A DNA stretch of 61,430 bases, from assembly GCA_964619725.1 (NCBI GenBank), contig CAZUFC010000033.1, positions 5,276 to 66,705 of the forward strand, written 5' to 3'. Positions 20,474 through 61,430 of the stretch are shown here, one piece after another. The notes under the pieces were generated by a model. The model made no database searches. It had not been told where the DNA came from and was given only the letters and a program-made list of their open reading frames with translations. Position numbers and translations under genes: made by a program. How positions within the stretch are numbered: position 1 is the first letter of the stretch; each line of letters starts with the position of its first letter. Origin of the DNA: an uncultured bacterium. GTDB taxonomy: Bacteria > CSSED10-310 > CAZUFC01.

Positions 20474-20503
20474 TGCTTCTTTAAAGAAAGGCATAGATGA
20501 ATT

Positions 20504-22879
20504 TCAATTGGACTTTCTTTTTATCAATGCGAAAAAGATAAGAAGCATCAAGGAAAGCCCTATTTTTGAAACGGTTGGAATTTTGACGGGATGAGTCGGC
20601 GTAGGCGTGCTGAGCGGAGTTACCACGCTGGTCGGCGTTTTGGACGGGGTATATTCAGGCGTGATAGTCGGTCGAGGCTCATGCGTATAAAACGGCGTTT
20701 CCGTAGCCGTAAAGGGCGTATCGGTGATTGTGGGAGAAGGCGTTACGGTCGGAGAAAGCGTCGGCGTCATTGTAGCGGTGGGGTGAACTATAACGACGGT
20801 CAGCTCGTCCTGCCGTTCTGTCTGACAGGCTGATACCCTGGCTCGCACCTTGAACTGCTCATCTCTCAAATGCGTTACCGTAAAAGTCGATCCTGTCCAG
20901 GGTTCATTCTGTATTGTGGAATTGAGTCCTGACTGGCTGTAATTTTGTGCGTTCCATTCCTGCTGTCCGGTAACGACGAACCAGTCGATGCTGCCCGCCA
21001 ATCCCTGCCATAGGGCATTTCCCGTAATCTGTGCGGTAAAAACGACCTGTTCGTTGTAATTGAAGCCTTCACCTTCATCCGGATCGGTAATCTCCACCCC
21101 GATGTCGTCCGCTGGAACGAAATTGCCCGAACGCGTCCAGTTATTGCAATTGTCTTTTATCCGCAACCTGACGCTCTCATATTCCAGGAATTCACATCCC
21201 GCCAGGAGTATCCAGCAGGAAAATTCTCCGTGGGGCGAACCGTCAATGGGCAAAGCCGGGTCCGGCGGCCAGTGCAATCCTCCGATCTCGCTGGGCCAGG
21301 GTTCGCCGTATTCATATTGAGCTACAGGCGATTTATCCACGTAATAAAAATGCATCAGTTCATCATCCAGGCAGACACGAGCGCCCGGTTCCGTTTCCAT
21401 ATCAATTGAAAGCATGTGATGCAAAAAACGCCCCTGGTCGGTCGAGGGGTCTTCCGCCTTAACGATTATGACTATGCCGCCGGGATTCTCCTGAAGCCAA
21501 TCCTCCATATGCTGACCTCGCCGAGTCCAGTAATAATCCCAGTGATTCGAAACGGAACCGTCGCCGTTATAAACCTGGCCGCCCATTGCCGCCAGCGAAG
21601 GCAACAACTCATCCTGCACGTAATCGTTCAGCTCTTCACCCGGCATAACCGCAAAATTGTTCGTAGGAATTCCGTTTGAATCGACAAAAACCGGACAGGT
21701 GTGGTCCACGAGCAGCGATTCATCCATGTTCCATCCCTTGGATTCATATCCGTAAGGATCATTCGGATCGCATTCATAACAGTCGATCCTGACTTCCCAA
21801 AGATAATTCAATCCCGCGTCCGTACAAAGACTCGGCGGATAATAACCGTACGCCCTGGGATAATGCTCCAGGTGATAACTCGGATATCCCACTCCCTTAT
21901 AGCCCGTGTTATCGTCGTTATACCACAGAGTATCCGCTTGCGCACTCCAGTTCGTCAACGGATCGAGATGACCCTCGCCGATCCAGTTGAAATGAACGCA
22001 TACGTAAGTAAAACACTCCCACCAGGGCGTATACCAGGGAAAATCGTCGTCTCCATCAAAATTGCTTTCAGCATCCAATACCTTGCGCTCTTCCCCTTCA
22101 ACCGAAGCGTAATGATGCATCTTTACCGTCCAATCACCCGAAAAACAGGTGTCGATCTCGCCTACGTCACCCTTGTCACAACCATAGTCTTTAGAAACTC
22201 CCGATGCCTCTTTGAACAATTTCCCCCTCAGCTCCCCTAAACTCGAATGAAATATAACCTCCGGCGATACTCCGCTTTTCCGTAAGCCGGACAAGTCCTC
22301 CAGGAGAATTCCGTCACCTGTTTCAAGCCTGATTAGACTGCCGTCATACAACACCGCTACACTCTCGATTATCCTATCCATATTGCGCAGATTCCACCTC
22401 TCCTCATCTCCCAGTTCCTCTGCCGCTAAAGAACGCTCCAGATCAGCATAAAGATATCCGTCTTGAAGCCCTATCCCGATATCCATCCGCGGCAATCGAT
22501 CCAATACCTCAAATTCAAACCGGCAAATCGATTCATAAGCCGCGCTTACCGCCGTCAGGCAAATAGTATGAACCCCGGCTTCCAACTCCTTTACCTCAGC
22601 TTTCAAAAGAATCCCGTCAAATGAAAATGCCTTCCGTATCCCGTCAACCGTCAAAAAAACCTCAACAGGATCATCATTGGGTTGAAGTTTTCTCAGTTCA
22701 GCCGTAAAATTGAAGGAACCGGATAAAATCGCAGGAATGCCTGTCCGGCCATTGTCCGCCAGCCCAGACGGTTCTTTCAGTTCCCATTGGAAATGACGAT
22801 CCATTCCCCGGGACGAATGAACAGTAAATATAACTGAAAAAAACAAAGCCAGAAAAACGATCCGTGACCTTCCCTTCAT
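20504..22879 (-). CDS. Secreted protein with P/T linker and IPTL-CTERM-type sorting signal
   Basis: Signal peptide; C-terminus IPTVSKIGLSLMLLIFFALIKRKSN (IPT motif, transmembrane helix, basic tail). Confidence 0.75.
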   Translation of the reverse strand: MKGRSRIVFLALFFSVIFTVHSSRGMDRHFQWELKEPSGLADNGRTGIPAILSGSFNFTAELRKLQPNDDPVEVFLTVDGIRKAFSFDGILLKAEVKELEAGVHTICLTAVSAAYESICRFEFEVLDRLPRMDIGIGLQDGYLYADLERSLAAEELGDEERWNLRNMDRIIESVAVLYDGSLIRLETGDGILLEDLSGLRKSGVSPEVIFHSSLGELRGKLFKEASGVSKDYGCDKGDVGEIDTCFSGDWTVKMHHYASVEGEERKVLDAESNFDGDDDFPWYTPWWECFTYVCVHFNWIGEGHLDPLTNWSAQADTLWYNDDNTGYKGVGYPSYHLEHYPRAYGYYPPSLCTDAGLNYLWEVRIDCYECDPNDPYGYESKGWNMDESLLVDHTCPVFVDSNGIPTNNFAVMPGEELNDYVQDELLPSLAAMGGQVYNGDGSVSNHWDYYWTRRGQHMEDWLQENPGGIVIIVKAEDPSTDQGRFLHHMLSIDMETEPGARVCLDDELMHFYYVDKSPVAQYEYGEPWPSEIGGLHWPPDPALPIDGSPHGEFSCWILLAGCEFLEYESVRLRIKDNCNNWTRSGNFVPADDIGVEITDPDEGEGFNYNEQVVFTAQITGNALWQGLAGSIDWFVVTGQQEWNAQNYSQSGLNSTIQNEPWTGSTFTVTHLRDEQFKVRARVSACQTERQDELTVVIVHPTATMTPTLSPTVTPSPTITDTPFTATETPFYTHEPRPTITPEYTPSKTPTSVVTPLSTPTPTHPVKIPTVSKIGLSLMLLIFFALIKRKSN

Positions 22880-41270: not shown

Positions 41271-41858
41271 CTTCGCCTCCCTTTGATCCAAAATATCCTG
41301 CTTAATATCATCATTTGAGGACATCCTTTCCGCTCTTATCTCATATCCTCCATGACTGAGTTTTTTTCCTTCTCATCAGGCAAAACATAACTGTCGGCAT
41401 CCAACCATCCGTGATAACTCTTCAATGTTTTCTCCCGATTTCCGCCGTATCTTTCCGGCGTGCTTTAAAAACTGGAACTTTAATTCAGTCTCCCGGTCAT
41501 TCGTTGACATGATACAGAAATTTCAGATTTCAATCAACTTCACATACTCCGGTTATGGCAACCATCCGGTTTTTGCGACTGATCAAACCGTGGTTACGCT
41601 TTTTTTTAAAAGGTTTGACAGTTAGTTTCGGTAATCCGGGGCAGATGTCGGTATCGAAATAAACGGCCATTAATGAAAAGACAGCGGTGAAGTAGTCGAA
41701 CAGATAAATTCTGAACCAAGGATCAGTTTTATAATGGGGATTTCAATCAATCAAAGGTTTTATAAAAAAGTGCACCCCCGGCACGATCAGTCCAAAAATT
41801 CCGTTTCTTTCCCAAGACGGTAAATTTTCAGATAACGGTTTTTGCTGATATTCCACAA

Positions 41859-46987: not shown

Positions 46988-47122
46988 TCCCGGATTTTGA
47001 CAAAGCGATTTCTGTTCATTATATAACAGGTGGAGGTTGTTGAGATTCTAATAGGGACTCGTTCTAATGTCGAAGAATTTTCATTTATTATTAAAGCATA
47101 ATAGTAAAGAAAGGAGCGAAAA

Positions 47123-48727
47123 GTGAAAAAATCATTCATGACTGACTTATTAATTGCAGTGTTTTGCATTTTTACCTGTTTTTCCATGCTTCATGCCGCT
47201 CCCGGCATGATCAATTACCAGGGCAAAATAGAAGCGGACGGCGAACCTTACGGCTACCCGGTTCCTGCGGAAGGTTATTTCATGTTCGCCATATTGTCGG
47301 CCGGGAACGAAATATTATGGACCAATGACGGAGCGCAACCGAACCCGCCGGCGATTCCCGTCGCAACGACCATAAGCGCCGGTCTTTACAATGTTATTCT
47401 GGGTTATACCGACGGCATGTCGCCCATACCCCCGGACGTTTTCGAGACAGATGAAGTTTACCTGAGAATATGGTTCTCTGAAGACGGATCAAATTTTCAA
47501 CAACTGTCGCCCGATCAGATTATGACCAGCACAGGATATGCCCTGCAGGCCGAAGACGTTTACGATAAAGAGATCAGTCCGCGCAGCGTGAGCATTGCGG
47601 GCTACGACGGAAAAAATGAACTGGTCATCAACGAAGTGGGCCAATGGGTTGGAGACCCCACAGGTTTACAGGGTCCGGCAGGCGATACGGGACCGCAAGG
47701 ACCGCAGGGCTATACAGGCGCTGTGGGGCCGACAGGACATACCGGGCCGCAAGGACCGAAAGGAGACACCGGCGCTATGGGTCCGATGGGATATACCGGG
47801 CCGGAAGGACCGCAGGGCTATACCGGCGCTATGGGTCCGACGGGACATACCGGGCCTGAAGGACCGCAGGGCGATACCGGCGCTGTGGGGCCGACGGGAC
47901 ATACCGGGCCTGAAGGGCCGAAAGGAGACACCGGCCTCATGGGTCCGACGGGGCATACCGGGCCGGAAGGACCGCAGGGCGATACCGGAGCCATGGGTCC
48001 GATGGGACATACCGGGCCGGAAGGACCGAAAGGAGACACCGGCGCTATGGGCCTTACTGGTCACACGGGTCCTGCAGGTCCGACTGGAGCCACAGGATTA
48101 ATGGGTCCGGAAGGGCCCCAGGGCGATACCGGCGTTATGGGTCCATCAGGCGAAATGGGACCAGCAGGGCCGACCGGTCCGCAAGGCGACACCGGTCCCA
48201 TAGGTCCGATGGGTTACACCGGACCGGAAGGTCCCGCCGGCGATACCGGCCCCGAAGGTCCGACAGGTCCCAAAGGCGATACCGGAGTCATCGGGACTGG
48301 GGCATTCCAATGGTATTATCAACCCTCTGACAACATCATCTGCCAGGAAACCGATGACCATGGAGCAAGCTCCACCAGTTTCGTTAAAGTATTTAATCTC
48401 GAATTGGTCCGCTTTCACCGCGAATCCAATATACGCGTTCAAACAAAATGCGGCCGTAACAGCGATAATGGAGAAAGAGTCTACTGGCGAATCACAGACC
48501 AAAACGGCAACGTCCTGGAAGAAGGAAACAAATATCCACCTTATCCCATGGCGACCATTTCCTTCGACATCTACCTGAACGATTACGACAGAATCACCAA
48601 CCTCTATTTCTATATCCGGTCGTCAGGCGGATGCAACATGTGGTACAATTACATCAGACTATGCGGCGACATGGTCGACCAGTATGTCGATATGGACTTC
48701 CCTGAAATCGTTGAGGGCGATTTGTAA
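47123..48727 (+). CDS. Secreted collagen-like protein
   Basis: Signal peptide; PGMINYQG N-domain; long (Gly-X-Y)n tract; globular C-terminal domain; AAGGAG RBS before GTG. Confidence 0.9.
47651..48302 (+). repeat. Collagen Gly-X-Y coding repeats with a 54-bp higher-order unit ([18 protein letters not shown])
   Basis: Repeated ccggaaggaccg(c/a)a(g/a)gg..ac(c/a)ggcgct(a/g)tggg.ccga.ggga.ataccggg. Confidence 0.9.
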
Positions 48728-49213
48728 AACATAGAAGGGCTGGTCATACGTTACCCCCCTTCCATGAAGGCATACCGCTCCCTCTGGATGAAAATTGGGA
48801 AGGGATGGATGCATGTAAGATATGATAGTTGGAAAAATGGTGACTGATCCAACCGGGGTTACACTTTTTTCAAAGTTTTTGACAGTTTGTTTCTGTAATC
48901 GGGATCGGGGTCGGGGTCGGGGTTGGGATCGCAATCGGACATTCAATAAAGAGAACTACGCCAACTGAATGATTGTTTCAAGTATGCATAAAATTGAATT
49001 TTTCAAAGTGGATTTCAAGTTCAATACGAGATTTGACCGTTAACTTAAAAGTCAGTTCTCTTATACTAATGACTAAGCTGCTCGCTGTGGATAAATGACA
49101 CATTCTCACCCAAAGTTTAGTTTCGCTTCCCTTTCATAGCATTTTATCGTATACTCTCTCCAGATACTGTGCCGTTGCATAGATTTCCTATCACCTTAAG
49201 TCAGGAAAAAATT

Positions 49214-51040
49214 ATGACACTCTGCAGATGGCAAAAAGACTTTGATGATTCTCTGAAGTACAAGAAATGTATCATCTTATGCGGCAATATCCGTGACAAA
49301 TACCTTTTCCAGGAACCTCATGCGGAAGACAATTATAAATTGTTGAGTTTAAAAGAATTCATGATCGCAAAGTTGTCCAGGATTGCCGGAAAGCTGCAGT
49401 TCTACGATCCCATCTCTAAAATTACCGATCATTCCCCTGATGCCAGGAACTCTAAAACGGCTCCCGAACAGGCAACCCGAGTGCCGGACGACATATCCGG
49501 AACCGGTCCTCAGCGGTCGATCGCCGGAGAAGGAAAAACAGTCAGAGATTTAATTAGAATACGTAGAGATTTGAGTGCGGATCAGGGCACTTATATGATC
49601 ATGCAATATGCGGACAAAACCATGCCGGAAAAAGCACAAGATGAAGAGAACATGCGTCTGGTTCTTTATATCGAAAAGATAATTGAAAATATTTCTCCCG
49701 GGAACCGTTTGATATTGATCTATCTTATGAATGAACAGGTGCCCCAGGAGTTATACGTGAATCATCCGAAGGTGAAGCTGATCGAGATTCCGTCGCCTGA
49801 TCGGTCCGAACTGCGATTATTATTTGAACGTTTTTATCGATGGGGGAGTGAGGACATAGAAAGCCTGGTGAATGTTGCGGACGGATTGAAATTTTCGGAG
49901 ATCGAACAGATCGTGCAGTCGTTGAACAAAACTTTTGATTTGGAGGAATTTAAAACTCGCTTAAGGCTTTATAAATTCGGCGAATCGAAAAATTACTGGG
50001 AAGAAGTGAGTTTAAAAAAATTGAATGCGGCTCATGATTTTTTCACGAAACAGGAAGGGATAAAAGGCCAGGATGAAGCGATCAATCGGGTGATCAGGGT
50101 GGTGGTGAGGGCAAGAGCGGACATTCAGCGAAAAACTGGCGGCAATCCGAAGACGCCGCGGGGTAAGTTGTTTTTCTCGGGTCCCACAGGCGTGGGAAAG
50201 ACCCTGACGGCCAAAAAGCTGGCTAGGTTTTTATTCGGCTCGGAGGATGCGTTCATCAGGTTCGACATGAGCGAATACAGTCAGGAATTTCAAGTTACCA
50301 GGCTTTACGGAGCGCCTCCGGGTTATATCGGATACGAGAGCGGCGGAACATTGACCAATGCCGTCAAAAAACGTCCTTTTTCCGTAATACTTTTCGACGA
50401 AATCGAAAAAGCGAATGCGAGAGTCTTCGATATTTTTCTTCAGATACTGGAAGACGGCAGGATCACCGATTCCAAAGGCGATACTGTCTTTCTGTCTGAA
50501 GCCATCATTATTTTCACCTCTAATCTCGGGACTCGAACCACGGATATCAAAGGAAAAAAAAGCAGCGAACGGGGTAATCTCGATGCTTTACGGAGCCGTA
50601 CCGATGTCGAGGGAATTCGCAACCATTTCTTGAACAGCGTCGAAAATTTTTTCCAGTACGAAATTTCCAGACCTGAACTTTTAAACAGAATAGGACGGGA
50701 CAACATTATCGTATTTAATTTCATCCTTCAAGAAGACACCATCAAGGGCATGATCAGACATCATCTGAATCAGGTCCGAACCTCATTCAACGATTTTTAT
50801 CAGAAAATAATGCCCAGAATGACGCTGAGCATGGAGACAGACAATCTTACGGATTATTTCTATAAGCAGTATTTCAATGAAATACAACTTTTCGGCGGGC
50901 GTCAGGTGGAAAATATTATTAATGAACATATTCGCGATAAACTGGCCGTCGCGGTATTGAAAGCCGAATACAGAAAAAAACAGGAAGCTGCAGTCATTGC
51001 GGAAGTAGCGGATGAAGGAATAAAAATATCACTTCAATAG
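49214..51040 (+). CDS. AAA+ ATPase with a ClpB/ClpA second-module (D2)-like C-terminal domain and an N-terminal half lacking a Walker A motif
   Basis: GPTGVGKT, RFDMSEY, RLYGAPPGYIGY, LFDEIEKA, LQILEDGRITD, RPELLNRI. No Clp-N repeats and no IGF loop seen. Confidence 0.9.
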   Translation: MTLCRWQKDFDDSLKYKKCIILCGNIRDKYLFQEPHAEDNYKLLSLKEFMIAKLSRIAGKLQFYDPISKITDHSPDARNSKTAPEQATRVPDDISGTGPQRSIAGEGKTVRDLIRIRRDLSADQGTYMIMQYADKTMPEKAQDEENMRLVLYIEKIIENISPGNRLILIYLMNEQVPQELYVNHPKVKLIEIPSPDRSELRLLFERFYRWGSEDIESLVNVADGLKFSEIEQIVQSLNKTFDLEEFKTRLRLYKFGESKNYWEEVSLKKLNAAHDFFTKQEGIKGQDEAINRVIRVVVRARADIQRKTGGNPKTPRGKLFFSGPTGVGKTLTAKKLARFLFGSEDAFIRFDMSEYSQEFQVTRLYGAPPGYIGYESGGTLTNAVKKRPFSVILFDEIEKANARVFDIFLQILEDGRITDSKGDTVFLSEAIIIFTSNLGTRTTDIKGKKSSERGNLDALRSRTDVEGIRNHFLNSVENFFQYEISRPELLNRIGRDNIIVFNFILQEDTIKGMIRHHLNQVRTSFNDFYQKIMPRMTLSMETDNLTDYFYKQYFNEIQLFGGRQVENIINEHIRDKLAVAVLKAEYRKKQEAAVIAEVADEGIKISLQ

Positions 51041-51044
51041 CACG

Positions 51045-51662
51045 ATGAATCTCCTAAACACAGGAAGAATACACCGGCACAGTCGAGTTAACGGACCGGG
51101 ACAAAGATTCGCTGTCTGGGTGCAGGGCTGTTCAAGGAAATGCGAGGGCTGCATGAATACTGAATTCTGGTCCGATGAGCCTAAACGTCTGCTTCACGTG
51201 GACGAACTTCACGAGATGATTATGCAGACCGAAGACATTGACGGCGTTACTTTTACGGGAGGAGAACCTTTTGAACAAGCATATCCACTATTCCTCCTGG
51301 CCAAAAAACTGAAAAAATCGGACATAAGCATCGTCTCCTATACAGGCTGCACAATTGAAGAATTGAGAAATCAGAACGATGCCTGCATACAGGGACTGCT
51401 AAGCACGCTCGATATTCTCATTGACGGACCCTACGTAAAAAAACTTAAATCGTCCCTATTATGGAGAGGAAGCTCTAATCAACGAATTCATATCCTTACC
51501 GACCGTTATCGCGAATACCCTCGTCACGCCGACGAAAATATCATGGATTTGGAACTCGCTTTAGACGGAGATACATTGTCCATGTCGGGCAACTTCGATG
51601 AAAAAATGATCTCGAAAATAAAACGACTGCTCAGTACAAAATACGGAATCAATATAAAATGA
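51045..51662 (+). CDS. Radical SAM protein, NrdG/activase-like
   Basis: NGPGQRFAVWVQGCSRKCEGC (CxxxCxxC), TFTGGEPFEQ, DILIDGPY, RGSSNQRI. Confidence 0.9.
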   Translation: MNLLNTGRIHRHSRVNGPGQRFAVWVQGCSRKCEGCMNTEFWSDEPKRLLHVDELHEMIMQTEDIDGVTFTGGEPFEQAYPLFLLAKKLKKSDISIVSYTGCTIEELRNQNDACIQGLLSTLDILIDGPYVKKLKSSLLWRGSSNQRIHILTDRYREYPRHADENIMDLELALDGDTLSMSGNFDEKMISKIKRLLSTKYGINIK

Positions 51663-52834
51663 TGAAAACACTCTCACAGAACGATGAATATTCACGCTAT
51701 ACTGCCGCCGTTGAAGATCGAACGCTCAAAATAAGACAAAAAGGGTTCCTGCTGTGCTTGGATACCAGGCCGAGTTATCTTTACAGGCATATTGCGAATC
51801 TGTTTTCAGTAAAATGCGAACAATACGACATACCCCTGAAATTTTCCATGCTGAGTCGTACCGAAGAGCTGCACGAAACGCCGGACGATGAATTTTTTCA
51901 TCAGAACGCGATGAGACATCGAGGCCGGTTCATTACTCCGCTTGCAGAAAATATATTTCCTCAAATACAGGACGAGGCATTACATCTTATTCTAATATCG
52001 GATGAAGTTCCCTATGACTGGAAGGACCAGGCGGAGTTCATCAGCAATAAATTCGTCAGTTCAAACGTGCTGATCATCCAGGATATGGAAAACCGAACCC
52101 TGTCGGATATCGAAAACGGGCTCATCGATGCCCTTTTTCAACCCCGGGCCATAACGGTGTCCATGCGATTCGAGGAAGGATTGCCCCATCAGCTTCCCGA
52201 TGGTTTTTCCGTATGTTTGCAGGACAATCAATTCGTGATGGAAAAAAATGAAAAGACATTCAAAATCGATATTCCGCTGAAAACTTTCGGCGCCTCCGGG
52301 GAGTCCCGCATTCATTTACTCCTGAATCAGACTCCTGCAGCGGAAATAAAAATCAAAAATAAAGACCCGGAAAGCTTTCGTTTTGAACGTGAATTATCTT
52401 CGAATGACGCCGGTATCTTTTTCCAGGCTGTCGAAAGCTATTGCTCCGGGAATAGAAACCATTTCTGTCCCTTATGCGGTTGCGAACATGAATTTGTTAA
52501 AGCGTTACACTGTCGAAATCAGTCATGCGGATTCAGGCTGTTTTCTGATGAAAGCTTAGTTTTCAAGGAAATTGAAGAATCAACAGACGAAAACACGAAA
52601 TTCATCCTGTTCAAAGTAGGCAAAAAACGGGTATACTGGCGAAGGTCGAACAGCGGCCTGATTTTTCTGAACAGAAAGCAGGCCCTGTATGCCGTTAATA
52701 ATTCCTTTTTCATGCTTGAAATTGCAAAATCATTGAAAATGACGGAATTCGATATCCTGCATGAGAGTCTGTATTGTTTCAGACCGAAGAATTTGCTGGC
52801 ATTGAAGTTGTCGGAAGCAGAAAATGAAATTTGA
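51659..52834 (+). CDS. Hypothetical protein, possibly a degenerate vWA-like N-terminal part plus a Cys cluster
   Basis: LCLDTRPS (MIDAS-like), LILISDEVPYDW, CPLCGCEH..HC..SC; ATGA overlap with the upstream gene. Confidence 0.6.
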   Translation: MMKTLSQNDEYSRYTAAVEDRTLKIRQKGFLLCLDTRPSYLYRHIANLFSVKCEQYDIPLKFSMLSRTEELHETPDDEFFHQNAMRHRGRFITPLAENIFPQIQDEALHLILISDEVPYDWKDQAEFISNKFVSSNVLIIQDMENRTLSDIENGLIDALFQPRAITVSMRFEEGLPHQLPDGFSVCLQDNQFVMEKNEKTFKIDIPLKTFGASGESRIHLLLNQTPAAEIKIKNKDPESFRFERELSSNDAGIFFQAVESYCSGNRNHFCPLCGCEHEFVKALHCRNQSCGFRLFSDESLVFKEIEESTDENTKFILFKVGKKRVYWRRSNSGLIFLNRKQALYAVNNSFFMLEIAKSLKMTEFDILHESLYCFRPKNLLALKLSEAENEI

Positions 52835-53426
52835 CTTTCACATCGACGAAACCGGAACGCCTTTGGCGGCGTATGCCAGGGGCAAATACATCGCAGTTTT
52901 GCCGGTCACGAAATATCAATTCGAACGGTATATCTGGGAAACTGCTCCTAACTGGATAAACTACGACCTGCTGCTGGAGCAGACAGGAAGAGTTTCCCCG
53001 AAAGAGATCAACAGAAATAATATCGGCCAGGCTTTCATCTCCAATATCAACTTCAGGGAAGCGGAACTTTTCTGCAGATGGGCGAAAGCGCGACCGCCTT
53101 CCTCCACCGAATGGAACGAATCGCATAAGATACGTTTCCACAACAGGATAATAGAAAGATGCGTCAAATATCTGCATAGCAATGAAGCCGCAAAAAAAGT
53201 CGATCCCAGGCTGTTGACTCTTTTCACAAAAATGCATGAATACGGCATTACCCCGAACGATACGACAGACATCGGCGAACTTGTAAGCGAATTTTCCGCT
53301 CATCCTTACGGCAGGATATACCTGAAGTATGATCTGGATGACGAGGCTTTTATAACGGGAAGCAAGCCTGCGGAGATAAAATGTCCAGAATTCGGCTTTA
53401 CCTATATCAGGGCGCAGGTGCGATGA
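52824..53426 (+). CDS. Degenerate FGE-sulfatase (SUMF1-like) fold protein
   Basis: PVTKYQFERYI, NINFREAELFCRWAKARPPSSTEW, DIGELVSEF and FGF parallel the FGE consensus VTNxQY, VSWxDAxAYCxWxGxRLPTEAEW, DMxGNVWEW and GFR. Confidence 0.65.
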   Translation: MKFDFHIDETGTPLAAYARGKYIAVLPVTKYQFERYIWETAPNWINYDLLLEQTGRVSPKEINRNNIGQAFISNINFREAELFCRWAKARPPSSTEWNESHKIRFHNRIIERCVKYLHSNEAAKKVDPRLLTLFTKMHEYGITPNDTTDIGELVSEFSAHPYGRIYLKYDLDDEAFITGSKPAEIKCPEFGFTYIRAQVR

Positions 53427-55498
53427 TGAATGACCGGATTGCGAAGGCTGAGAAAAAATTGCGTTCGTCTTTCGTATTTTCGAGGAAGGCGGCAGTTAGA
53501 ATGCTTGAACAGTCCGAACGATCCGGGGCAATCAGGATGCTGAAAGAAGCATTGAAAGACGCTCATCCCGGCGTAAGGAATCTTGCAGTAATCGTTTTGG
53601 GCAATTTAGATGCTCAGGATGCTGTCCCGCAAATAGGCCCTCTTATTTCCGATCCTGCTCGGAGAGTAAAAAGAAGTGCGGTCCAGTCATTACGTCGAAT
53701 TGGAATATCAACATGCACCGATTATTTGATTTCCGGACTGGAGGACGATGCGCCGAACATCCGGAAATTATGCGTGGAAGGACTAGCGGAGATAGGCGAT
53801 CCGAAAGCCGTAATGGCTTTATTGAAAAAACAAATAAAATCTGATCGGATGCTATCGCAGACCATAGCGAAAGCATTACATAGAATCGGGTGTAGGGCTG
53901 TCCCGCAATTAATAGCATCGGTAAACGGAAACGATGTCGCGCTGCGGATAGCCGCCGTCCAACTTTTAGGCGATTTAAAGCCTCGATCAGCCGTCGAACC
54001 GTTGATAGAAGCATTGGATACGGATGAATATAATGTTAGAAAAAGCGTTGAAAAAGCGCTCTGCGAATTCGGAAACGATGTCTTTGAACCTCTGGTTCAA
54101 AAACTCGGTCATCCAAACTCGGCAGTAAGGCAGAGCACTGTACGGGTACTGGATCGTTTGAAATGGAATCCGGTTTCAGATACCGAAAAGGCTTATTATT
54201 TAATCGCTGTCGGAAAATGGAACAGAGCGCTCCATTTAAGGCGATATGCTTCTTCGCCATTGTTGAACGCCCTGAATTTCGATTCCCTGGTTGACCTCAA
54301 AAATGCCGTTAAAAGCATCAGCAAAGCAGGATTAAAAGAGGCTGAGGAGCCGATGCGCCGGTTGTTGGCGGGCAAAAACGACAGAGAGCTTCGATTGACG
54401 ATACTTGTGGCGCTTGGAGAACTGCAGGCGACAGCAAGCGCTGAAACGATAATCGAATATCTCAAACCGGATGATCCGCCAATGAACAGAATCGCTCTGT
54501 CCAGTCTGGTGAAAATAGGGATGCCTGCTGTCGATTGCTATGTGAATGCGTTGCTGAGTCCCGACCAAAAAGTCAGAAAATCCGTTCTGAAGCTCTTGAA
54601 GAAATTGAAATGGACGCCTTTATCCGATGAGCAACTGGCGACAAAACATGTGGCCGCACTAAACTGGTCCAAAGCATTGTCCATCGGTGATCCTGCATTG
54701 CTGCCCCTGATCAGTGCGATGAAGTTTAACAATCATCATTCAGTCGCAGCGGCCGTCGATTCACTGGGCGAGTTGGGCAATCAGGAAGCGGCAGTCCCCC
54801 TGATCGATACCCTTCGATCAAATGTTACTTTCGTAAAATGCAAATGCCTGAATGCATTGGGACGAATCGGAGGTTCCCGGGCCCTCCTGGCCCTGATAGA
54901 CGCTCTGAACGACCAGAACGAGTCAATCAAAACCGCTGCCGCAGAAGCCGCAGAACAAATCCTTCAATCTTCTCTTCAGCCGCTGATCGAACTGATCACA
55001 ACACAGGATCCCCAAATAAAAAGGAAAAGCATTCATGCCGCAGGCAGAATGAAAGAACCAGGCGTTATGAAATTCATTCTCGCTGCACTGGATGACCCCG
55101 ACTCGAATGTCAGAAAAACCGCACTCCAGGCCCATAAGCAAATTAATCCTCTGGTTAAAGGAATCATCTTCGGCAATATCAAACTGAACGGATGCAGAAA
55201 AGCCGTCAGCAATGTTCAATTTGAAAACATGAAAGTACCCTTCGAAAACCTCGAACTCATACTGATAGATGCATACTCATACGAAATGATCAAAGTCGAA
55301 CAGTTCATTACTTACGCCCTGGACTATATCGGTGAAAAATATCTTAAAAGAAAAGTTACCGCTTACATTCGCGGAAACGAGAAGGATTTACAGCAAAACC
55401 TGCTCAACAACTTAAAAAATAATTTTAAAAAAGTCGTCGAAGTCCAAAACCTGGCGAAAAACAAAATAATTAAAACTCTTGGAGGAAAAGGTGCATGA
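53423..55498 (+). CDS. HEAT (PBS-lyase-type) repeat protein with a non-repeat C-terminal domain
   Basis: Many repeats of the type VRxxAxxxLG..AVxPLIxAL; two LKWxPxSD..W inserts; ATGA overlap. Confidence 0.88.
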   Translation: MMNDRIAKAEKKLRSSFVFSRKAAVRMLEQSERSGAIRMLKEALKDAHPGVRNLAVIVLGNLDAQDAVPQIGPLISDPARRVKRSAVQSLRRIGISTCTDYLISGLEDDAPNIRKLCVEGLAEIGDPKAVMALLKKQIKSDRMLSQTIAKALHRIGCRAVPQLIASVNGNDVALRIAAVQLLGDLKPRSAVEPLIEALDTDEYNVRKSVEKALCEFGNDVFEPLVQKLGHPNSAVRQSTVRVLDRLKWNPVSDTEKAYYLIAVGKWNRALHLRRYASSPLLNALNFDSLVDLKNAVKSISKAGLKEAEEPMRRLLAGKNDRELRLTILVALGELQATASAETIIEYLKPDDPPMNRIALSSLVKIGMPAVDCYVNALLSPDQKVRKSVLKLLKKLKWTPLSDEQLATKHVAALNWSKALSIGDPALLPLISAMKFNNHHSVAAAVDSLGELGNQEAAVPLIDTLRSNVTFVKCKCLNALGRIGGSRALLALIDALNDQNESIKTAAAEAAEQILQSSLQPLIELITTQDPQIKRKSIHAAGRMKEPGVMKFILAALDDPDSNVRKTALQAHKQINPLVKGIIFGNIKLNGCRKAVSNVQFENMKVPFENLELILIDAYSYEMIKVEQFITYALDYIGEKYLKRKVTAYIRGNEKDLQQNLLNNLKNNFKKVVEVQNLAKNKIIKTLGGKGA

Positions 55499-56454
55499 TC
55501 TGTCCGTTTTGTATGAACGAGCATAATCAAACCGAAGAAGAATGCCCTGAAAAAGGACTCCGAATTCCGAAATCCTACCTGACGTCAAATAATCCGGTCA
55601 ATTTCGTTTTCACCATTGGCTACAGCGGACACGGTAAAACCTGTTATCTCAGCAGCCTGTTTCATACTTTTTACCACGGTTCATATTCGCAAAAATGGCC
55701 CGGATTCTCTTTCCTCGGACTCACACAGGACACCCTGAACAAAATACATAACGAATACGTGCACCCTCTGTCCCAGGGCAATCTTCCACCTAAAACGCCA
55801 ATAATGTTTCCTACTCCCCTGATTCTAAAACTGCAGAATGCCCCTTTAAAAAAAGGTCCCCTTTCTTTAAGAGTAAAACAGAAAGAAATTATTATCATTT
55901 TCTATGACATAGGCGGCGGCACCTTCGAAGTCGCTGAAAAGATTGAAGAGAATCTGCCCCTGCTTTCCAAAATAAGAACGCTCGTTTTTCTGATCGACCT
56001 GCCCGGACTCATTGAAGACGAAACGGAAGGAAAACCCGATGTTGTTAAAAGACTTCATAACCTCATGAACACGATTTATCTCGCCCTGGAAAACATCAAT
56101 CAGAAAAATAAAAAAGATCTTATTATCTGCTTCTCTAAAGCTGATATTATGTGGAAAAGAAAGGACCTGTACGGCGCACTGGCCATGAAACGCAAGAACA
56201 GCTTACCCTCGATCAGAGAAATCCCTAAATACATGATCGAAATGAAAAATTTCTCGGAAAACATTCACCGGTACATAAGCGAGCGATATAATCCGTTTTA
56301 CGCCGTCCTGAAAAATAATTTCCGGAAAATATACTTTACAACCTTTTCAGCTCTGGGGAAAGCTCCAACCGATGATAACCAGATAAAAGCCCTGACGCCG
56401 CGCAATGTGCTTGACCCGATTTTCTGGACTATGCGTCTTAATAAATGCCTGTGA
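55495..56454 (+). CDS. TRAFAC-clade GTPase (double-GTPase-2-like) with N-terminal Zn ribbon
   Basis: MICPFC..ECP; G1 GYSGHGKT; PPKT (G2); G3 YDIGG; G4 SKAD; G5 SALG; PRNVLDPIFW. Confidence 0.8.
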   Translation: MICPFCMNEHNQTEEECPEKGLRIPKSYLTSNNPVNFVFTIGYSGHGKTCYLSSLFHTFYHGSYSQKWPGFSFLGLTQDTLNKIHNEYVHPLSQGNLPPKTPIMFPTPLILKLQNAPLKKGPLSLRVKQKEIIIIFYDIGGGTFEVAEKIEENLPLLSKIRTLVFLIDLPGLIEDETEGKPDVVKRLHNLMNTIYLALENINQKNKKDLIICFSKADIMWKRKDLYGALAMKRKNSLPSIREIPKYMIEMKNFSENIHRYISERYNPFYAVLKNNFRKIYFTTFSALGKAPTDDNQIKALTPRNVLDPIFWTMRLNKCL

Positions 56455-56525
56455 CAACGTTAGGCCGAATGTGTGACAGGCCGAAGCCTTTCCGGATATG
56501 AATTTATAGCTTGAAGGAGATTCCA

Positions 56526-58328
56526 ATGCCTCGATTTGATTTGTTACAACATGTTTACACCAGCGGCAAACGGGAATTCGAAACGGTCGCCGCATGCGAG
56601 GATATCTCAAAAGAAGAACAATTGAGGCTTGAAAGCAAATCACTGTATGTTCTGCCCGCCTCGCTGATGTACGCAGAAAATCCCGCTGCACCCCATAAAT
56701 ACATTTTTTATCAGCTCAATGAAAAACGGTGCGTGGTCGGACGTGCCGTCTATATCGGAAAGGACGGACTCGGACGCCCAGGAAACTACCTGTTTCATAA
56801 TCTTATTATTAATTCATCCGACTTTGAAAAGCTTTACAATAATCCACTGGCACTGATAAAGCATATTAAAAAAGAGGCAGGTTTTATCGACTCAATCCCT
56901 CAAGACCCGGCGCTCCCACCGCTTTCCGTCGATATGACGATACCGGATACAAACAGTTATCAGAATTTTTCGAACGATAACCGGCTTATTCACGCTCTTT
57001 GGGAAGTCGTTCAACATTCCGAAAATATTAAAAAACCGGTTCTTATCCTGGGAAATGAAAACGATATACTGGAAGTCGCAGAATGGATAATTGCTGCTTT
57101 GGCGCCCGTTGAACTACGGACTAAAATTAGTTTTGACTCATACTCGTACAACGTGAATACGAATTCTACCATAGTCGCCCTGCCTTCGCTGAATGAATAC
57201 CGACAAAGCATCGCCTTTTCGATTAAAATTAAACCTCAAAACAGAGAATTCTCAATAAACATCGAACCCGCGCAACCCGCGCCCATGACCTTGCTGGTCC
57301 TTAAAAAACTCAGCAGCGACAAAATCAACGACGTGATAAAGCTGCACAGAATAAGACACGATGCCTGCAGACAGGGGTTCCACGCCGCAAAAAACATGTT
57401 TCTTAACTCCCCTGAAGATATCCGTTCTTTTTTTTATTCCGAATATCGAAAAAGCATACTCAATCACATAATCCAAAAAATTGATATGGATGTTCTCTCA
57501 GGCGTTAAAAAGTTCATAGACCGAAAAGATTTCGAATTTTTAAGCCGCGACTTGCAAATTGTAAAACAATGCATGCAGTTCGATCTGAAAAAACTTAATG
57601 CGATGATAGCCTCATGGTTCCTGAAATTGCAAAACAAAAACCAAATTCTGCCCCTCTTTGTAAATGCGCCGTCTGTGCTGGAGATTCTTCTCGATCGAAT
57701 CGATTTTTCTTCCGAAAACACAGAATGGATATACAGGATGTTCGCTCTCCTGCCTGATCGTTACGATCCCGAAATAGAGCGCCTGTTCCTGAAAGTAGTC
57801 CTTCCACAAGTGGGAAACCTCCAAAGCGATAAAAAACTGAATTCAATTATGATCGACATATTCAATAAATTACCCGAAACGAACGATAAAGAAATTATCT
57901 TCATGAGGAATTATATTCTAGGCAACATTTCGGTCGATTCTTCATTTTTGGACGCATTTAAGGCGGACTATCGCTCAACGCTAGGATACGACGTTAAAAA
58001 AGGAATTCTAAGCGGCAACATATCAATGTTGGTCCACAGCGAAATGGGAAAAGAAACCATACCTTTTCTTATCGAGCTGTTCTCAAATACAGAAACAAAA
58101 AAAGAGCGGCTTGACGATATCCTGAAATATTTAAAAGATTCAAAAACAAAAAACAGGAATCCGAAAGAAGTGAAAAAACACCTGTTGAAAAATGTGTTTT
58201 TATTCAAAGAAAACGAAATACCCCGGCCGAAAACAAAAAAAGACCGGTCCTCCGGACGAAAACCGAAACCGGTCGTAAAACAGACAAAAAAAAGAAACTT
58301 TTTCAGCCGGTTATTTGGAAACAAATAG
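56526..58328 (+). CDS. GAP1-N2-domain protein (GTPase-associated protein 1)
   Basis: QHVYTS..FETVA..YVLP..GRAVYIGKDGLGRPGNYLFHNL matches the GAP1-N2 pattern as I recall it; helical C-terminus ending FFSRLFG; AAGGAG RBS. Confidence 0.75.
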   Translation: MPRFDLLQHVYTSGKREFETVAACEDISKEEQLRLESKSLYVLPASLMYAENPAAPHKYIFYQLNEKRCVVGRAVYIGKDGLGRPGNYLFHNLIINSSDFEKLYNNPLALIKHIKKEAGFIDSIPQDPALPPLSVDMTIPDTNSYQNFSNDNRLIHALWEVVQHSENIKKPVLILGNENDILEVAEWIIAALAPVELRTKISFDSYSYNVNTNSTIVALPSLNEYRQSIAFSIKIKPQNREFSINIEPAQPAPMTLLVLKKLSSDKINDVIKLHRIRHDACRQGFHAAKNMFLNSPEDIRSFFYSEYRKSILNHIIQKIDMDVLSGVKKFIDRKDFEFLSRDLQIVKQCMQFDLKKLNAMIASWFLKLQNKNQILPLFVNAPSVLEILLDRIDFSSENTEWIYRMFALLPDRYDPEIERLFLKVVLPQVGNLQSDKKLNSIMIDIFNKLPETNDKEIIFMRNYILGNISVDSSFLDAFKADYRSTLGYDVKKGILSGNISMLVHSEMGKETIPFLIELFSNTETKKERLDDILKYLKDSKTKNRNPKEVKKHLLKNVFLFKENEIPRPKTKKDRSSGRKPKPVVKQTKKRNFFSRLFGNK

Positions 58329-58351
58329 ATTTTTAAAAGCGAGGCGTAAAA

Positions 58352-59395
58352 ATGAGCGGTTTAAAAGAAAGCGATATAGTTTTACAAAGGCAGACGGCTC
58401 AGTTGCTGAAAGCGCAACAGGACCGAAAAAAAGCCGGCGAACAATGCCGCATTTGCATCAATGAAGCACAAAAGTTGATGGACAGACTGGGAAACCTGTC
58501 CGCCGAAAATGAGGAAATTTCGACAAAATTCATAGAGTATACTTCAGTGCTGTCGCAACAGTCGAAGGGATTGAAAGTAGCTGAAACCAGAGTTGAGTCT
58601 ATAGAGTTGCCTCAGTATCCGGGGGATGTTGTTTTTGAGGACCTGGCCGGCGATCAGCAGATTCTAAACGAAGTAAAGGCGAAAATTAAAAATGTGAAGG
58701 CCCTGGTCCGAAATGTGAACAAAGAAATAATTCAATTAAAAGAAGCAGATGAGAATATCGGCGCAGTTGAATTCGAAATGGAGCAATTCCAGAGTGATTT
58801 GAACGCAGGAAGGGATATCCTTACAAAATGGATGCCGCATGAATGCGCATCCCTGGATCAAGGCTTCAACAGATTGAAAGATGAGTTTAACGAACTGAGA
58901 AGTAAAAAGGCGGAATCTATCGAAGCGACTGAACTGGCAGCCGAACTGAGAAACAGGATCGAAGAAATTAGACAGTTGCATGCACGCCTGAAAAACAATC
59001 TCAACGAATCCGAAAAAAGGGAAGAGATGCACGACAAAAGACTGTACATTTTAAAGTCGCTGCGTGAGGTTTGCGCATCATTGGGATTCGAGGAAATTGC
59101 GGACCCCAGATACGAACGAAACAAAGATTTCAATAGCCCCATAGTCCATGAAATAGATACCCTTGACGAAGGCAAAATCAGCTTTAGAATTCATCTGGAA
59201 AACAAAATAGATTCCCGTTCGGCACTGGATACCTCAATATGCGGCACAGAATTCGCCCAATTATCAGAACTGCTCTCAAAAGAATTCGGCATAAATACGC
59301 ATTTCAAATTAGAGGACGGAAGCGATCTGCCCAAACTTAAAACTAAAACAGGCAAACCCTTGCCGGAATCCGCAACAAAAAAAAGAACAAACTGA
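58352..59395 (+). CDS. Coiled-coil protein with a small C-terminal alpha/beta domain
   Basis: Heptad-rich E/K/Q/L sequence, then ILKSLREVCASLGFE..ISFRIHLE..C..LSELLSKEFG; GAGG RBS. Confidence 0.8.
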   Translation: MSGLKESDIVLQRQTAQLLKAQQDRKKAGEQCRICINEAQKLMDRLGNLSAENEEISTKFIEYTSVLSQQSKGLKVAETRVESIELPQYPGDVVFEDLAGDQQILNEVKAKIKNVKALVRNVNKEIIQLKEADENIGAVEFEMEQFQSDLNAGRDILTKWMPHECASLDQGFNRLKDEFNELRSKKAESIEATELAAELRNRIEEIRQLHARLKNNLNESEKREEMHDKRLYILKSLREVCASLGFEEIADPRYERNKDFNSPIVHEIDTLDEGKISFRIHLENKIDSRSALDTSICGTEFAQLSELLSKEFGINTHFKLEDGSDLPKLKTKTGKPLPESATKKRTN

Positions 59396-59705
59396 TCAAA
59401 TGGGGGTTATACTTAAAACAAAATTCATCTACTGAAATCCCGGGACTGATCAAATATCGATTACATTTTTATCAACAAAAAAAGCGTATTGAAATCCCCC
59501 TTAACAAGGGCTGTTGATTTAAGTTCTTCAGAATACCGCTGAAGCCGGAAATTCCGGTGAAATTGGAATCCACGAAGCCGAACGTCGCCCTGATTCATTT
59601 GCATTTAACCAAACAAGATCGACCGGCTTTACATATCTTTAAAGATTCAATACGGCGCCTGACGACCTGCAGGTTGAGGTCAGACTGAATCAACACTTCC
59701 TAACA

Positions 59706-59891
59706 AGTGCCTGTCCATAAACTCGATTCATAATTCAAATTTTGATGCTGGACAAGCACTGCGGTTTCTGATCCATAAACGAGCGAATTGTTCTTAAGGC
59801 AAGGAAGGTAAGGATTTGCGAAAGTGGCGTATTGCTTATACGTTGACTGAGCAAATCCGAAGCCTGACGCAGCATTAGGGAAAATTCGCCG
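59706..59891 (-). mobile_element. MITE-like dispersed repeat, copy 2, left end missing, fused to the NACHT gene
   Basis: The reverse complement aligns over about 185 bp with 36791-36975. Confidence 0.75.
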
Positions 59892-61430
59892 GCGCTGTAA
59901 GTCTGCCATCGCTCCAGCATCAAATCGGTCATGTCGTCGTACAGTCTGGCGCGGTCATCCGGGAGTTTCCCGTGGGAAAAATGAAGCGAAGCCATCATGG
60001 TAAGCCGCATGGGATTCCTGGCCAGTTCATACAGGTCTTCTCTTTTGACCGCCTGCCGCAGTTTGCCGATTAATTTGTTCACGTCTTCTTTAAGTTTCCA
60101 TTGCAGACGGCAGGCTTCCCTGTACCAGCAATCTATGAACAGGTCGATTTTGTCCGGATCGAATTCCGCCAGCTCATAATGCTCGAAGTCCTGCAGATCA
60201 TCCTCGAATCGATTATAGGCGTAATTACGGCAGGTGATTATCCACCGGTTGTCCGGATGGTTGTTTTCCTTGACGAATTCAAGGATGGACGACACGGCTG
60301 CCTGTAATTTTTCCTTTTCAGACACCTCGTCCAGACCATCGAAAAAGAATATCGCTTTTCCCTCATCAAGCAACGTTCTTACATGCTGATCGAAATCTTC
60401 GACGCCCTTGCCATACATCCATTCGCCCAGGTAATCCCACAGGCCGGAAGCTTTTCCATTGCAGTGATCTCGTGCAGCAAAATTGCTCACCACAATCTTG
60501 ACCGGCATCAGCGGACCCGCTTTCCAGGCCGGCTTCAGAAGCTTCATCCAGTCCTTGCGATCGACCGCAGATGGGGCCCCGGTTGATTCCAGGCGTGCTC
60601 CGGCCAGACAGAGACCCAGGTAATCGACGAAAGTTGATTTGCCGCCGCCGGGAGCCCCCGTCAATACCATTCTGTTTTCCCGGGAGGTCGCTTCCAATGC
60701 CGACAATGGTCTGAATTCTTTCACGGCTCTGCCCAGTATTGATTCTTTTTTACCTGGTTTGTTTTCGTCCTGCTCCTGGATGGTCGCCATCGTATCAAGA
60801 TTCACATAGACCGGCAGAAGGGACATCTTCTTGCTGCCTGTTCCACCATGAGCCTTCGGATCGATGATCTGCAACGGCAGCTCATTGAACATCGACTGGA
60901 TGCAGCGGAGATACTTTGGCTCCATGGTATCGTAATCCTGCTTTCGTGGTTTTGGTTTTTGCATGACCGGTCGAGTCTTTTTTCCATTTTGATGAAAACC
61001 GGTTTCGGCGAATCGGAATTGGTATATGCCGTCTTCTATATTTTCATAGGACTCATTATCGCAAGTCCAGAATTCACGGCCTTCAAAGCTGTATTTCCTA
61101 AGGTATATTTTTCCTTCTCCGGCACCAAAATCCAAATCCACAAAGTTGTATTTGTTGGGATATTCCCTTGAAGCGTATGCAGCTCCTCCAGATATAATCA
61201 TCGGACAAGAATCAGGGTCAATTTGTCTTTGAATCCTGGTTTTATGTAGATGCCCTCGCAAAATGAATTTACAGATATTTTTTATCTCGTCTTCCGTTTT
61301 CTCACAATCGATTTCATTAAGATATTCGAACGGATGATGCATGAGAGCTATCCTGATGTCGTTTTTTTTTTTTTTTTTAAGACCTTTTTTAAGCATTTTT
61401 TTCTTTTTAACAGTTTTTTTTCTTCTTTTT
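59735..61430 (-). pseudogene. Metallophosphoesterase-NACHT NTPase; 5' end beyond the window, 3' end truncated by the MITE-like repeat
   Basis: IALMHHP..ILRGHLH (calcineurin-like); GAPGGGKST; FFFDGLDEV; ITCR; LARNPMRLTMM; LPDDRARLY. The last ~50 codons are repeat-derived. Confidence 0.75.

Follow-up and report, generated by a model that had tools for sequence, protein, structure and literature searches.

An eight-gene bacterial cassette that joins a GAP1-N2/TRAFAC GTPase pair to a tandem AAA+ ATPase, a radical-SAM enzyme and a coiled-coil protein

GTPase-centric systems, which combine a DO-GTPase with a GAP1 protein, are predicted nucleoside triphosphate (NTP)-dependent conflict systems (Kaur, Burroughs, Iyer, Aravind, eLife 2020; PMC7159879). 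According to the main text of that study, two paralogous GTPases are present in 38% of the systems, 60% of the GTPases bear zinc ribbons, and the GTPases of N2 systems usually carry two of them. Its Table 1 gives 904 organisms for GAP1-N2. N2 systems include a protein whose FNIII repeats evolve rapidly, transmembrane (TM) components occur in 67% of systems, and the accessory themes include tubulin (52%), HSP70/GrpE (14%), and kinase/PP2C/vWA (10%). Planctomycete N2 systems with FGS domains are also mentioned. The same text describes FtsH ternary systems (vWA-MoxR subsystem 3), in which a dead AAA+ domain is followed by a live one in tandem, the vWA protein is divergent, and the simpler type has a radical S-adenosylmethionine (SAM) gene that stands alone (PMC7159879). 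The locus described here is a cassette of eight genes at positions 49214-59395 of a 61,430-nt stretch of contig CAZUFC010000033.1 from an uncultured bacterium; this whole stretch is called the window. On balance, the cassette is probably one horizontally spread operon whose products form a cytoplasmic multi-protein system that is gated by NTP and belongs to the GAP1-N2 GTPase-centric class.

The eight genes of the cassette are the following:
g1: 49214-51040, + strand, tandem AAA+ ATPase, 608 aa
g2: 51045-51662, + strand, radical-SAM enzyme, 205 aa
g3: 51659-52834, + strand, vWA / Ig-like / zinc-knuckle protein, assigned from a fold model and structure matches
g4: 52824-53426, + strand, FGS protein, 200 aa
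g5: 53423-55498, + strand, HEAT-repeat protein, 691 aa
g6: 55495-56454, + strand, zinc-knuckle TRAFAC GTPase, DO-GTPase2-like, 319 aa
g7: 56526-58328, + strand, GAP1 protein of N2 type, 600 aa
g8: 58352-59395, + strand, coiled-coil protein, 347 aa

This layout of co-oriented genes had been proposed in a first-pass annotation of the sequence, and all of its junctions and all eight domain assignments were reproduced, the latter by profile searches, orthologues, and the AlphaFold2 (AF2) model with its structure matches. ATGA overlaps join g2/g3, g4/g5, and g5/g6, and an 11-nt overlap joins g3/g4. Gaps of 4, 71, and 23 nt separate g1/g2, g6/g7, and g7/g8, respectively. The annotation also held the region to be more AT-rich than its flanks, which is modestly so: the cassette has a GC content of 43.7%, while the upstream and downstream flanks have 48.3% and 45.6%, respectively, and the 9.17-Mb genome has 47.1%; the cassette value lies in the lowest 3.8% of 1377 genome windows of 10.18 kb each. 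The ATG at 49214 is preceded by AGGA 10 nt upstream, and orthologues of g1 begin at the same Met; the upstream GTG at 49169 is disfavoured as a start on both counts. For g5, the other possible ATG codons are at 53381 and 53420.

Membership in the GAP1-N2 class is indicated by g7, which matches GAP1-N2 (PF20013) at 2.9e-11 (44 bits; cut-off 24) and is the sole match in the genome. Its family is very small: 5.8 billion proteins include 12 homologues, which are 26-35% identical to it. GAP1-N2 is recognised in all 13 members and GAP1-M in eight of them at E <= 0.1 (best 7.2e-5). Past residue 110, g7 is conserved within the family; this remainder is helical and ends in a conserved basic/amphipathic C-terminal tail.

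The gene directly upstream encodes a GTPase whose orthologues match DO-GTPase2 in three of five cases at E <= 0.01 (best 4.1e-8). In all five, residues C3, C6, H10, and C17, the P-loop K48/T49, the Walker-B D138, and D217 of the [ST]KxD motif are invariant. The four N-terminal residues form one C2HC knuckle rather than two. The alignment offers no certain residue for the Walker B “conserved glutamate” of DO-GTPases. Paired GTPases had been taken as usual for this class in the first-pass annotation; since a paralogous pair occurs in only 38% of the systems described in the main text of PMC7159879, a single GTPase is ordinary.

Structure prediction gives weak support to a contact between g6 and g7. 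The predicted contact score is 0.40 and that of the best control 0.01. Of 80 solved complexes, 58 reach the contact mark, as do two of 110 mismatched pairs; scores of 0.60 or below contain only seven of those 80 complexes, together with both passing mismatches. The runs had at least 74% contact agreement and a partner pLDDT of at least 76, and the calibration counts hold roughly, given the custom alignments. Profiles of g6, g7, and g8 found no significant relatives among Protein Data Bank (PDB) sequences.

The cassette recurs in other bacteria. Loci were compared by tblastn of the eight window proteins plus follow-up searches, which gave seven related loci, in gene order:
L004 with L010, Ca. 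Scalindua rubra (Planctomycetota; genome G042): g1, g2, HEAT, g3, g4, HEAT, g6, g7, g8; all eight kinds, two HEAT genes
L008, metagenome contig: g1, g2, g3, g4, g6, g7, g8; seven genes, without HEAT
L003, Nitrospira metagenome-assembled genome (MAG; Nitrospirota; genome G041): HEAT, g3, g4, HEAT, g6, g7
L005: g3, g4, HEAT, g6, g7, then a TM-rich open reading frame (ORF); the contig begins inside g3
L007: g6, g7
L009: HEAT with the C-terminal domain of g5 (HCT, below), then g7, with no GTPase between
L006: only a 42-residue zinc-knuckle match upstream of g7

Directly upstream of g7, g6 is found in five of these seven loci, as well as in the window. The genes g3 and g4 are present in 4/4 loci extending that far. 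The trio of g1, g2, and g8 occurs together in the window, Scalindua, and L008; it is jointly absent from the Nitrospira MAG, where no orthologue of any of the three was found anywhere in the genome, whose completeness is not established. Because the trio is jointly present in three instances and jointly absent in one, the cassette is a core (vWA, FGS, usually HEAT-HCT, GTPase, and GAP1) with a co-varying accessory trio. The earlier expectation that the AAA+/radical-SAM part would accompany the GTPase/GAP1 part elsewhere was thus borne out in two of the three related loci that are long enough, across phyla. The AAA+, radical-SAM, and coiled-coil genes do recur with the core, but they are not obligatory to it. 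In each of the seven genes that these loci share, the window copy is more similar to the one in Scalindua than to the one in L008, which fits inheritance as a unit. Identities range from 52-61% for g1, 39-56% for g6, 43-46% for g2, and 34-45% for g4 to 24-33% for g3, g7, and g8.

Despite this conserved order, the cassette is rare. For the genome scans, the alignment of the g7 family supplied two short peptide patterns, one of which contains GNYLFHN, invariant in 13 members. Among 185,579 species genomes, two related loci (Ca. Scalindua rubra and the Nitrospira MAG) were found besides the window's own, whose genome the species set may omit. A metagenome scan yielded at least five further loci. 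The GTPase g6 was found in one of 401 sampled Planctomycetota, and g7 in none of 40 relatives of the window genome, only 13 of which share its phylum. The hosts thus comprise Planctomycetota, Nitrospirota, and a third small phylum, that of the window. Such a rare and patchy distribution fits a mobile accessory system.

The gene that follows GAP1 varies among loci and is a coiled-coil protein, a TM-rich ORF, or a PP2C gene, the last in the Nitrospira MAG (L003, 12454-13185). About 5 kb further on in that MAG are a MoxR-like AAA_5 gene (17644-18633) and a 698-aa ORF without a family (18801-20897), which may be a second NTPase system or a substitute for the missing ClpB-type AAA+. In L008 (8721-13137), the coiled-coil gene is followed by a 690-aa ORF without a family and then a TrwB/TraG-type coupling protein (1.5e-40), which suggests that this copy could lie on a conjugative element. 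The Scalindua locus has an extra 204-aa ORF between g3 and g4 (L004, 5727-6341) that matches no Pfam family.

The cassette shares several features with described GAP1-N2 systems. In both, GAP1-N2 lies directly 3' of a zinc-ribbon TRAFAC GTPase, with variable accessory genes around the pair. The systems of PMC7159879, as far as its main text describes them, also have frequent vWA partners, mobile patchy neighbourhoods, and FGS domains in their planctomycete versions. The first-pass annotation had not recognised the combination as a named system; it is a GAP1-N2-type GTPase-centric system, of which planctomycete versions with FGS are already mentioned there. Unlike the cassette, the themes described in that text are without a ClpB-type AAA+, a radical-SAM enzyme, a HEAT-HCT protein, or this coiled-coil protein. 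The main text contains “radical SAM” once, for the FtsH ternary systems, and “ClpB” once, in the reference list; a theme of AAA+, radical SAM, and coiled coil is not described in it, and the figures or supplements might show one. The accessible text of a 2026 preprint cites DO-GTPases only in passing. No literature was found that joins radical SAM, vWA, GTPase, HEAT repeat, and anti-phage activity, and nothing related was found on NrdG, ClpB, and defence. Thus, the cassette is a new accessory theme (AAA+, radical SAM, and coiled coil) within a known class that was predicted by comparative genomics.

The FtsH ternary systems resemble the cassette in other respects. From their description in the main text of PMC7159879, they too have a tandem AAA+ protein whose N-terminal ATPase domain is inactive and whose C-terminal one is active, a vWA protein that is divergent and weakened in its metal-binding residues and, in the simpler type, a radical-SAM gene that stands alone. 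However, the cassette has an AAA+ of ClpB-D2 type, a GTPase-GAP1 pair as its regulator, and a radical-SAM enzyme of the NrdG/PFL-AE type, and it carries no MoxR gene. Compared with MoxR-vWA and FtsH ternary systems in general, a vWA fold is present in g3, but g1 belongs to the AAA_2 type and the cassette has no second AAA+.

The ATPase g1 matches Pfam AAA_2 at 5.8e-48 and PF00004 at 6.3e-8, with AAA_5 (2.3e-9) and AAA_3 (0.023) as secondary matches on the same core; ClpB_D2-small is just below its cut-off (20.9 bits against 21.9). The NCBIfam ClpB profile aligns only to residues 281-601, at positions 565-848 of 853 (253.6 bits; cut-off 1232). The protein has two parts: residues 1 to about 275 are a D1-like region, and residues from about 276 to 608 are of ClpB-D2 type with intact catalytic motifs. 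Walker A (323), a GYxG-type pore loop (366), and Walker B (392) are invariant in all 15 family members, the window copy included. The N-terminal domain has no GK[ST] P-loop. Because residues 1 to about 436 of an AF2 model of moderate confidence (pLDDT 74.2, pTM 0.57) superpose on D1-D2 of p97/Cdc48 (Z 12.3-13.2 over 300-330 residues), the N-terminal 275 or so residues look like a degenerate AAA+ domain. ClpB, ClpA, and ClpV are two-ring Hsp100 proteins with an active D1, whereas g1 matches D2 only and its N-terminal part is without a P-loop. The ATPase core also matches components of the Dodola and PDC-M37 systems, namely PDC-M37B at 2.5e-32 (residues 319-464) and DolB at 1.3e-18 (residues 257-441), but none of the other seven proteins matches the partners DolA or PDC-M37A.

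The sequence of g2 identifies it as a small radical-SAM enzyme of the type that activates glycyl-radical enzymes, such as NrdG or the pyruvate formate-lyase (PFL)-activating enzyme (PFL-AE). It matches Fer4_12 at 2e-34 and Radical_SAM with 31.8 bits (cut-off 29.5), and its closest solved structure is PFL-AE (3c8f, 1.9e-5). With NrdG and PFL-AE it shares an N-terminal CxxxCxxC, a GGEP SAM motif, an xGPGxR loop, and a small size; CxxxCxxC (29-36) and GGEPF (72) are invariant in the three orthologues, and the xGPGxR loop aligns to that of PFL-AE, where it has a role in substrate binding. A small size suggests a protein substrate, by analogy with the open partial barrel of PFL-AE. It differs from these activases in a C-terminal extension that is conserved and about 55 residues long; it also scores below the NCBIfam NrdG equivalog cut-off (115.2 bits against 126.1) and has no NrdD partner beside it. 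A viperin-like identity was rejected, the pVip profile giving 15.7 bits against 115 bits for NrdG.

The NrdD of this genome is on another contig, C35, alongside its own Fer4_12 activase-like ORF; therefore, g2 is not the housekeeping activase. Within the cassette, a Pfam search of the eight proteins found no glycyl-radical enzyme, and inspection of the alignments by eye found no convincing glycyl-radical-type motif. In the window's genome (G000), the NrdD match (G000:C35:27885-30089) ends at profile position 529, and a distinct frame of 100 aa just downstream holds the glycyl-radical end (532-562). That end is matched as well by another ORF, of 91 aa and standing alone, at G000:C68:11478-11579. 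Splitting of the gene, a frameshift, or spare proteins with the radical domain could explain this arrangement.

Three proteins of the core have folds with potential binding functions. The first, g3, belongs to no family in Pfam, NCBIfam, or PADLOC, and a word-based search found only g3 itself. An exhaustive profile search gave 52 representatives at E <= 0.001, of which 25 had E <= 1e-30. The AF2 model from 46 sequences is of high confidence (pLDDT 93.2, pTM 0.86) and contains a vWA domain (about 13-165), an Ig/cadherin-like beta-sandwich (about 163-235), a C2HC knuckle (C270, C273, H277, C285), and a beta-rich C-terminal domain (about 315-385). In VIA, the vWA domain 9doc_A matches best (Z 11.3, rmsd 2.5, 128 aligned), the 50 matches listed being mostly vWA domains, and Foldseek found the vWA structure 4fx5 at 1.4e-6. 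The middle domain matches 15 repeats of P0046, a 3989-aa protein that bears cadherin/Big_9 domains. Across the 46 sequences, D120 and D123 are invariant and D35, G89, P94, C270, C273, and C285 are kept in at least 90%; the metal ion-dependent adhesion site (MIDAS) motif is kept only in part. At E <= 0.001, Foldseek also listed Sec23/24 chains, archaeal ArnB/ArnAB, integrin beta, and ITIH1, all of which combine vWA with a sandwich. Sec23 is the GTPase-activating protein of the Sar1 GTPase. The parallel between g3 and Sec23 as GTPase-linked vWA proteins may be taken as a lead only.

The second of these proteins, g4, is a short, probably non-catalytic FGS protein of the C-type-lectin fold, judging from its sequence and those of its orthologues. 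Four of five orthologues match FGE-sulfatase at E <= 0.01 (best 9e-7); none of their Cys residues is kept in all five. The catalytic formylglycine-generating enzyme (FGE) has a domain of about 255 residues with catalytic cysteines, whereas g4 has 200 aa and is without an invariant Cys. A search at 47000-61430 for a template repeat of g4, of the kind used by diversity-generating retroelements (DGR), found none.

The HEAT protein g5 matches HEAT_2 at 4.8e-67 in 12 stretches. Its C-terminal domain, named HCT here, has about 97 residues (579-675; nt 55157-55447) and aligns in all nine HEAT ORFs of the window, L003, L004, and L005. A hidden Markov model of HCT found 10 of 54,121 ORFs, all of them cassette HEAT ORFs, with one in the window's genome and none in L008. 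HCT is new here, as are the g3 combination of vWA, Ig-like domain, and zinc knuckle and the tandem AAA+ with a dead first domain in g1.

The last protein, g8, consists of a coiled coil (about 1-225) and a conserved C-terminal globular domain (about 226-320). Its matches are weak and of coiled-coil type only, including SMC (9.4e-6), LmuB, JetC, and tropomyosin. Orthologues lie directly 3' of GAP1 in L004 (33% identity) and L008 (24-26%). For the C-terminal domain, the ESM Atlas gave only unnamed clusters, the best at 0.90, which is within the chance range.

These features suggest how the system could work. The first-pass annotation proposed a sensor, switch and remodeller machine, with anti-phage defence as one putative role. 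The FGS (lectin-fold), HEAT-HCT, and vWA proteins would bind a trigger or ligand or would scaffold the complex, and the GTPase-GAP1 pair would be the switch, which the amphipathic C-terminal tail of GAP1 may bring to the membrane. The AAA+ with its intact pore loop would thread a protein substrate, the activase-like radical-SAM enzyme would carry out radical chemistry on a protein, and the coiled-coil protein would organise the output assembly. The strongest candidate for an organiser or a substrate is g8, because its presence varies together with that of g1 and g2. A more specific proposal is that the trio is the protein-radical effector arm of an immune-like system. Once the GTPase/GAP1 pair switches, the coiled-coil protein would organise an assembly in which the unfoldase would feed a target or self protein to the activase-like enzyme, and a backbone radical installed by that enzyme would lead to oxygen- or chemistry-dependent inactivation or cleavage. 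We regard this proposal as improbable; if it were true, it would be the first glycyl-radical-type chemistry outside metabolism, in a system with two different NTPase regulators.

Several features speak for a role in conflict or defence: the cassette belongs to the GAP1-N2 family, is distributed patchily across phyla, and has a low GC content and variable terminal genes. Some of the neighbours, namely NACHT, the TraG-like coupling protein, and MoxR, also favour such a role. The NACHT gene (59735-61429, - strand; Pfam 2e-10) converges on the cassette, as the first-pass annotation had noted, and is truncated by the contig end.

Several observations weigh against this assignment, either to the class or to a conflict role. 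The window copies of two proteins score below their family cut-offs: g6 against DO-GTPase2 (6.6e-5, 23.1 bits; cut-off 27) and g4 against FGE-sulfatase (1.5e-3, 18.7 bits; cut-off 23.3), the g4 match spanning only profile positions 38-119 of 255. Of the N-M-C build of GAP1 proteins described in PMC7159879, the M part is undetected in the window g7, and the C part in all 13 family members. An hhalign comparison of the g1 N-terminal part with D2 gave a probability of 0.07, which leaves the D1-like call to structure. The cassette is also without an FNIII-repeat protein, no FNIII family being found in the eight proteins at E <= 0.1; the single Ig/cadherin-like sandwich of g3 may be a stand-in. Against the 67% of described systems with TM components, no TM segment was found in any of the eight proteins by a Kyte-Doolittle scan (maximum KD19 1.39). 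Two of the seven related loci, L009 and L006, have no full GTPase gene before g7. As the first-pass annotation anticipated, no named defence system was matched in PADLOC-DB 2.0.0; g3, g6, and g7 match none of its families, and the other proteins show only generic AAA+, HEAT, or coiled-coil likeness. No experimental work on any GAP1 system is found in the searchable literature. Finally, Pfam and PADLOC reveal no recognisable toxic effector (nuclease, TIR, pore-former, or protease) in the cassette, no copies were found on 72,556 plasmids or in viral contigs, and the flanks are mostly ordinary, with glycosyltransferases, a collagen-like protein, and a carbamoyltransferase.

The last three of these points are also what would be expected of a cellular machine that has no part in conflict, such as an accessory protein-maturation, cofactor-insertion, or cytoskeleton/envelope system. 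Here, the GTPase, the AAA+-vWA proteins, and the radical-SAM enzyme would assemble or remodel a client, as in hydrogenase, nitric-oxide-reductase, or Rubisco-activase-type maturation. The combination of radical SAM, GTPase, AAA+, and vWA recalls metallocentre maturation sets, and the neighbours also speak for such a machine: glycosyltransferases with a collagen-like surface protein in the window, and a glycosyltransferase in Scalindua. However, the window, L003, L004, and L008 have no conserved candidate client enzyme next to the cassette. The extreme patchiness over three phyla, down to two loci in the species genomes and one in the Planctomycetota sample, also counts against this reading, as do the atypical GC, the variable terminal gene, the GAP1-N2 membership, and the fast divergence of g3, g7, and g8 relative to g1. 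We therefore consider such a machine unlikely, although it is the strongest of the alternatives.

Slightly less probable still is that two separable systems, the AAA+/radical-SAM genes (plus the coiled coil) and the vWA-FGS-HEAT-GTPase-GAP1 genes, are neighbours through island clustering without functional coupling. The Nitrospira MAG does carry the second unit without g1, g2, and g8, conservation is much higher in g1 and g2 than in the other genes, and a HEAT gene sits between g2 and g3 in Scalindua. However, the same order is kept in three organisms with g8 at the far end, so that the trio brackets the core and forms no single block. The ATGA overlap of g2/g3 in the window and the consistent identity ranking in 7/7 genes point the same way. 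The families are of similar small size (14 homologues for the N-terminal part of g1 and 12 for g7), and one g1 and one g7 homologue share contig statistics (three contigs, longest 14,971 nt). A chance juxtaposition or assembly chimera is suggested only by the fragmented state of the metagenome-assembled genome (344 contigs, 6.5% contamination) and is ruled out by the synteny kept in independent genomes and metagenomes and by a single 8658-nt contig from a separate assembly of run X1, possibly itself the source sample of the window, that spans 50899-59556 from the g1 end to beyond g8; the overlapping start and stop codons of neighbouring genes also speak against it.

A single coupled system of the GAP1-N2 class would be of interest for several reasons. 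GAP1/DO-GTPase systems are a large class that is known by comparative-genomics prediction only. The cassette is compact and cytoplasmic, with seven genes in L008 and eight in the window, and its intact catalytic motifs make it a tractable test case. An activase-like enzyme and a ClpB-type unfoldase without a glycyl-radical enzyme in the cassette raise the question of which substrate would receive the radical. The high-confidence model of g3 and the private HCT domain of the HEAT proteins are handles for finding further members.

The surroundings of the cassette contain additional features. A collagen-repeat gene and a PMT_2 glycosyltransferase lie upstream. The collagen triple-helix gene (47123-48727, + strand; Pfam Collagen 3.6e-33; 60% GC) is directly adjacent to the cassette, and its repeats at 47617-48294 have a tandem periodicity of 27/54 nt. 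Promoter-like and terminator-like sites occur at chance level (19 against 18.7 expected and 15 against 13.5 expected, respectively), and Rfam gave no match at E <= 0.1 within 47000-61430.

A dispersed element of about 100 nt, which consists of a conserved 24-mer, a TTGACA-containing stretch, and GGxxTC-type short repeats, is present in about 500 copies in the 9.17-Mb genome (24-mer, up to four substitutions). Copies in the window are at 48843-48945, 59391-59414, and 41578-41601 on the + strand and at 41768-41791 on the - strand. The cassette lies between such copies, one of which includes the TGA stop of g8. The element may be similar to repetitive extragenic palindromic (REP) sequences or miniature inverted-repeat transposable elements (MITE), or may be a promoter/terminator module. 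The 31-nt direct repeats that flank the cassette were considered as att sites and are instead copies of this element. Excision was likewise rejected: read joints that skip the cassette (48865->59471 and similar) are best read as repeat artefacts, because their shorter side has only 24-30 letters and they fall in copies of this repeat, which is dispersed about 500 times. Another high-copy repeat appears to be present, either in the intergenic region or at the NACHT gene's 3' end: X1 depth is 362 at 59714-60295, against about 8 on either side, with many variant letters at 59743-59860.

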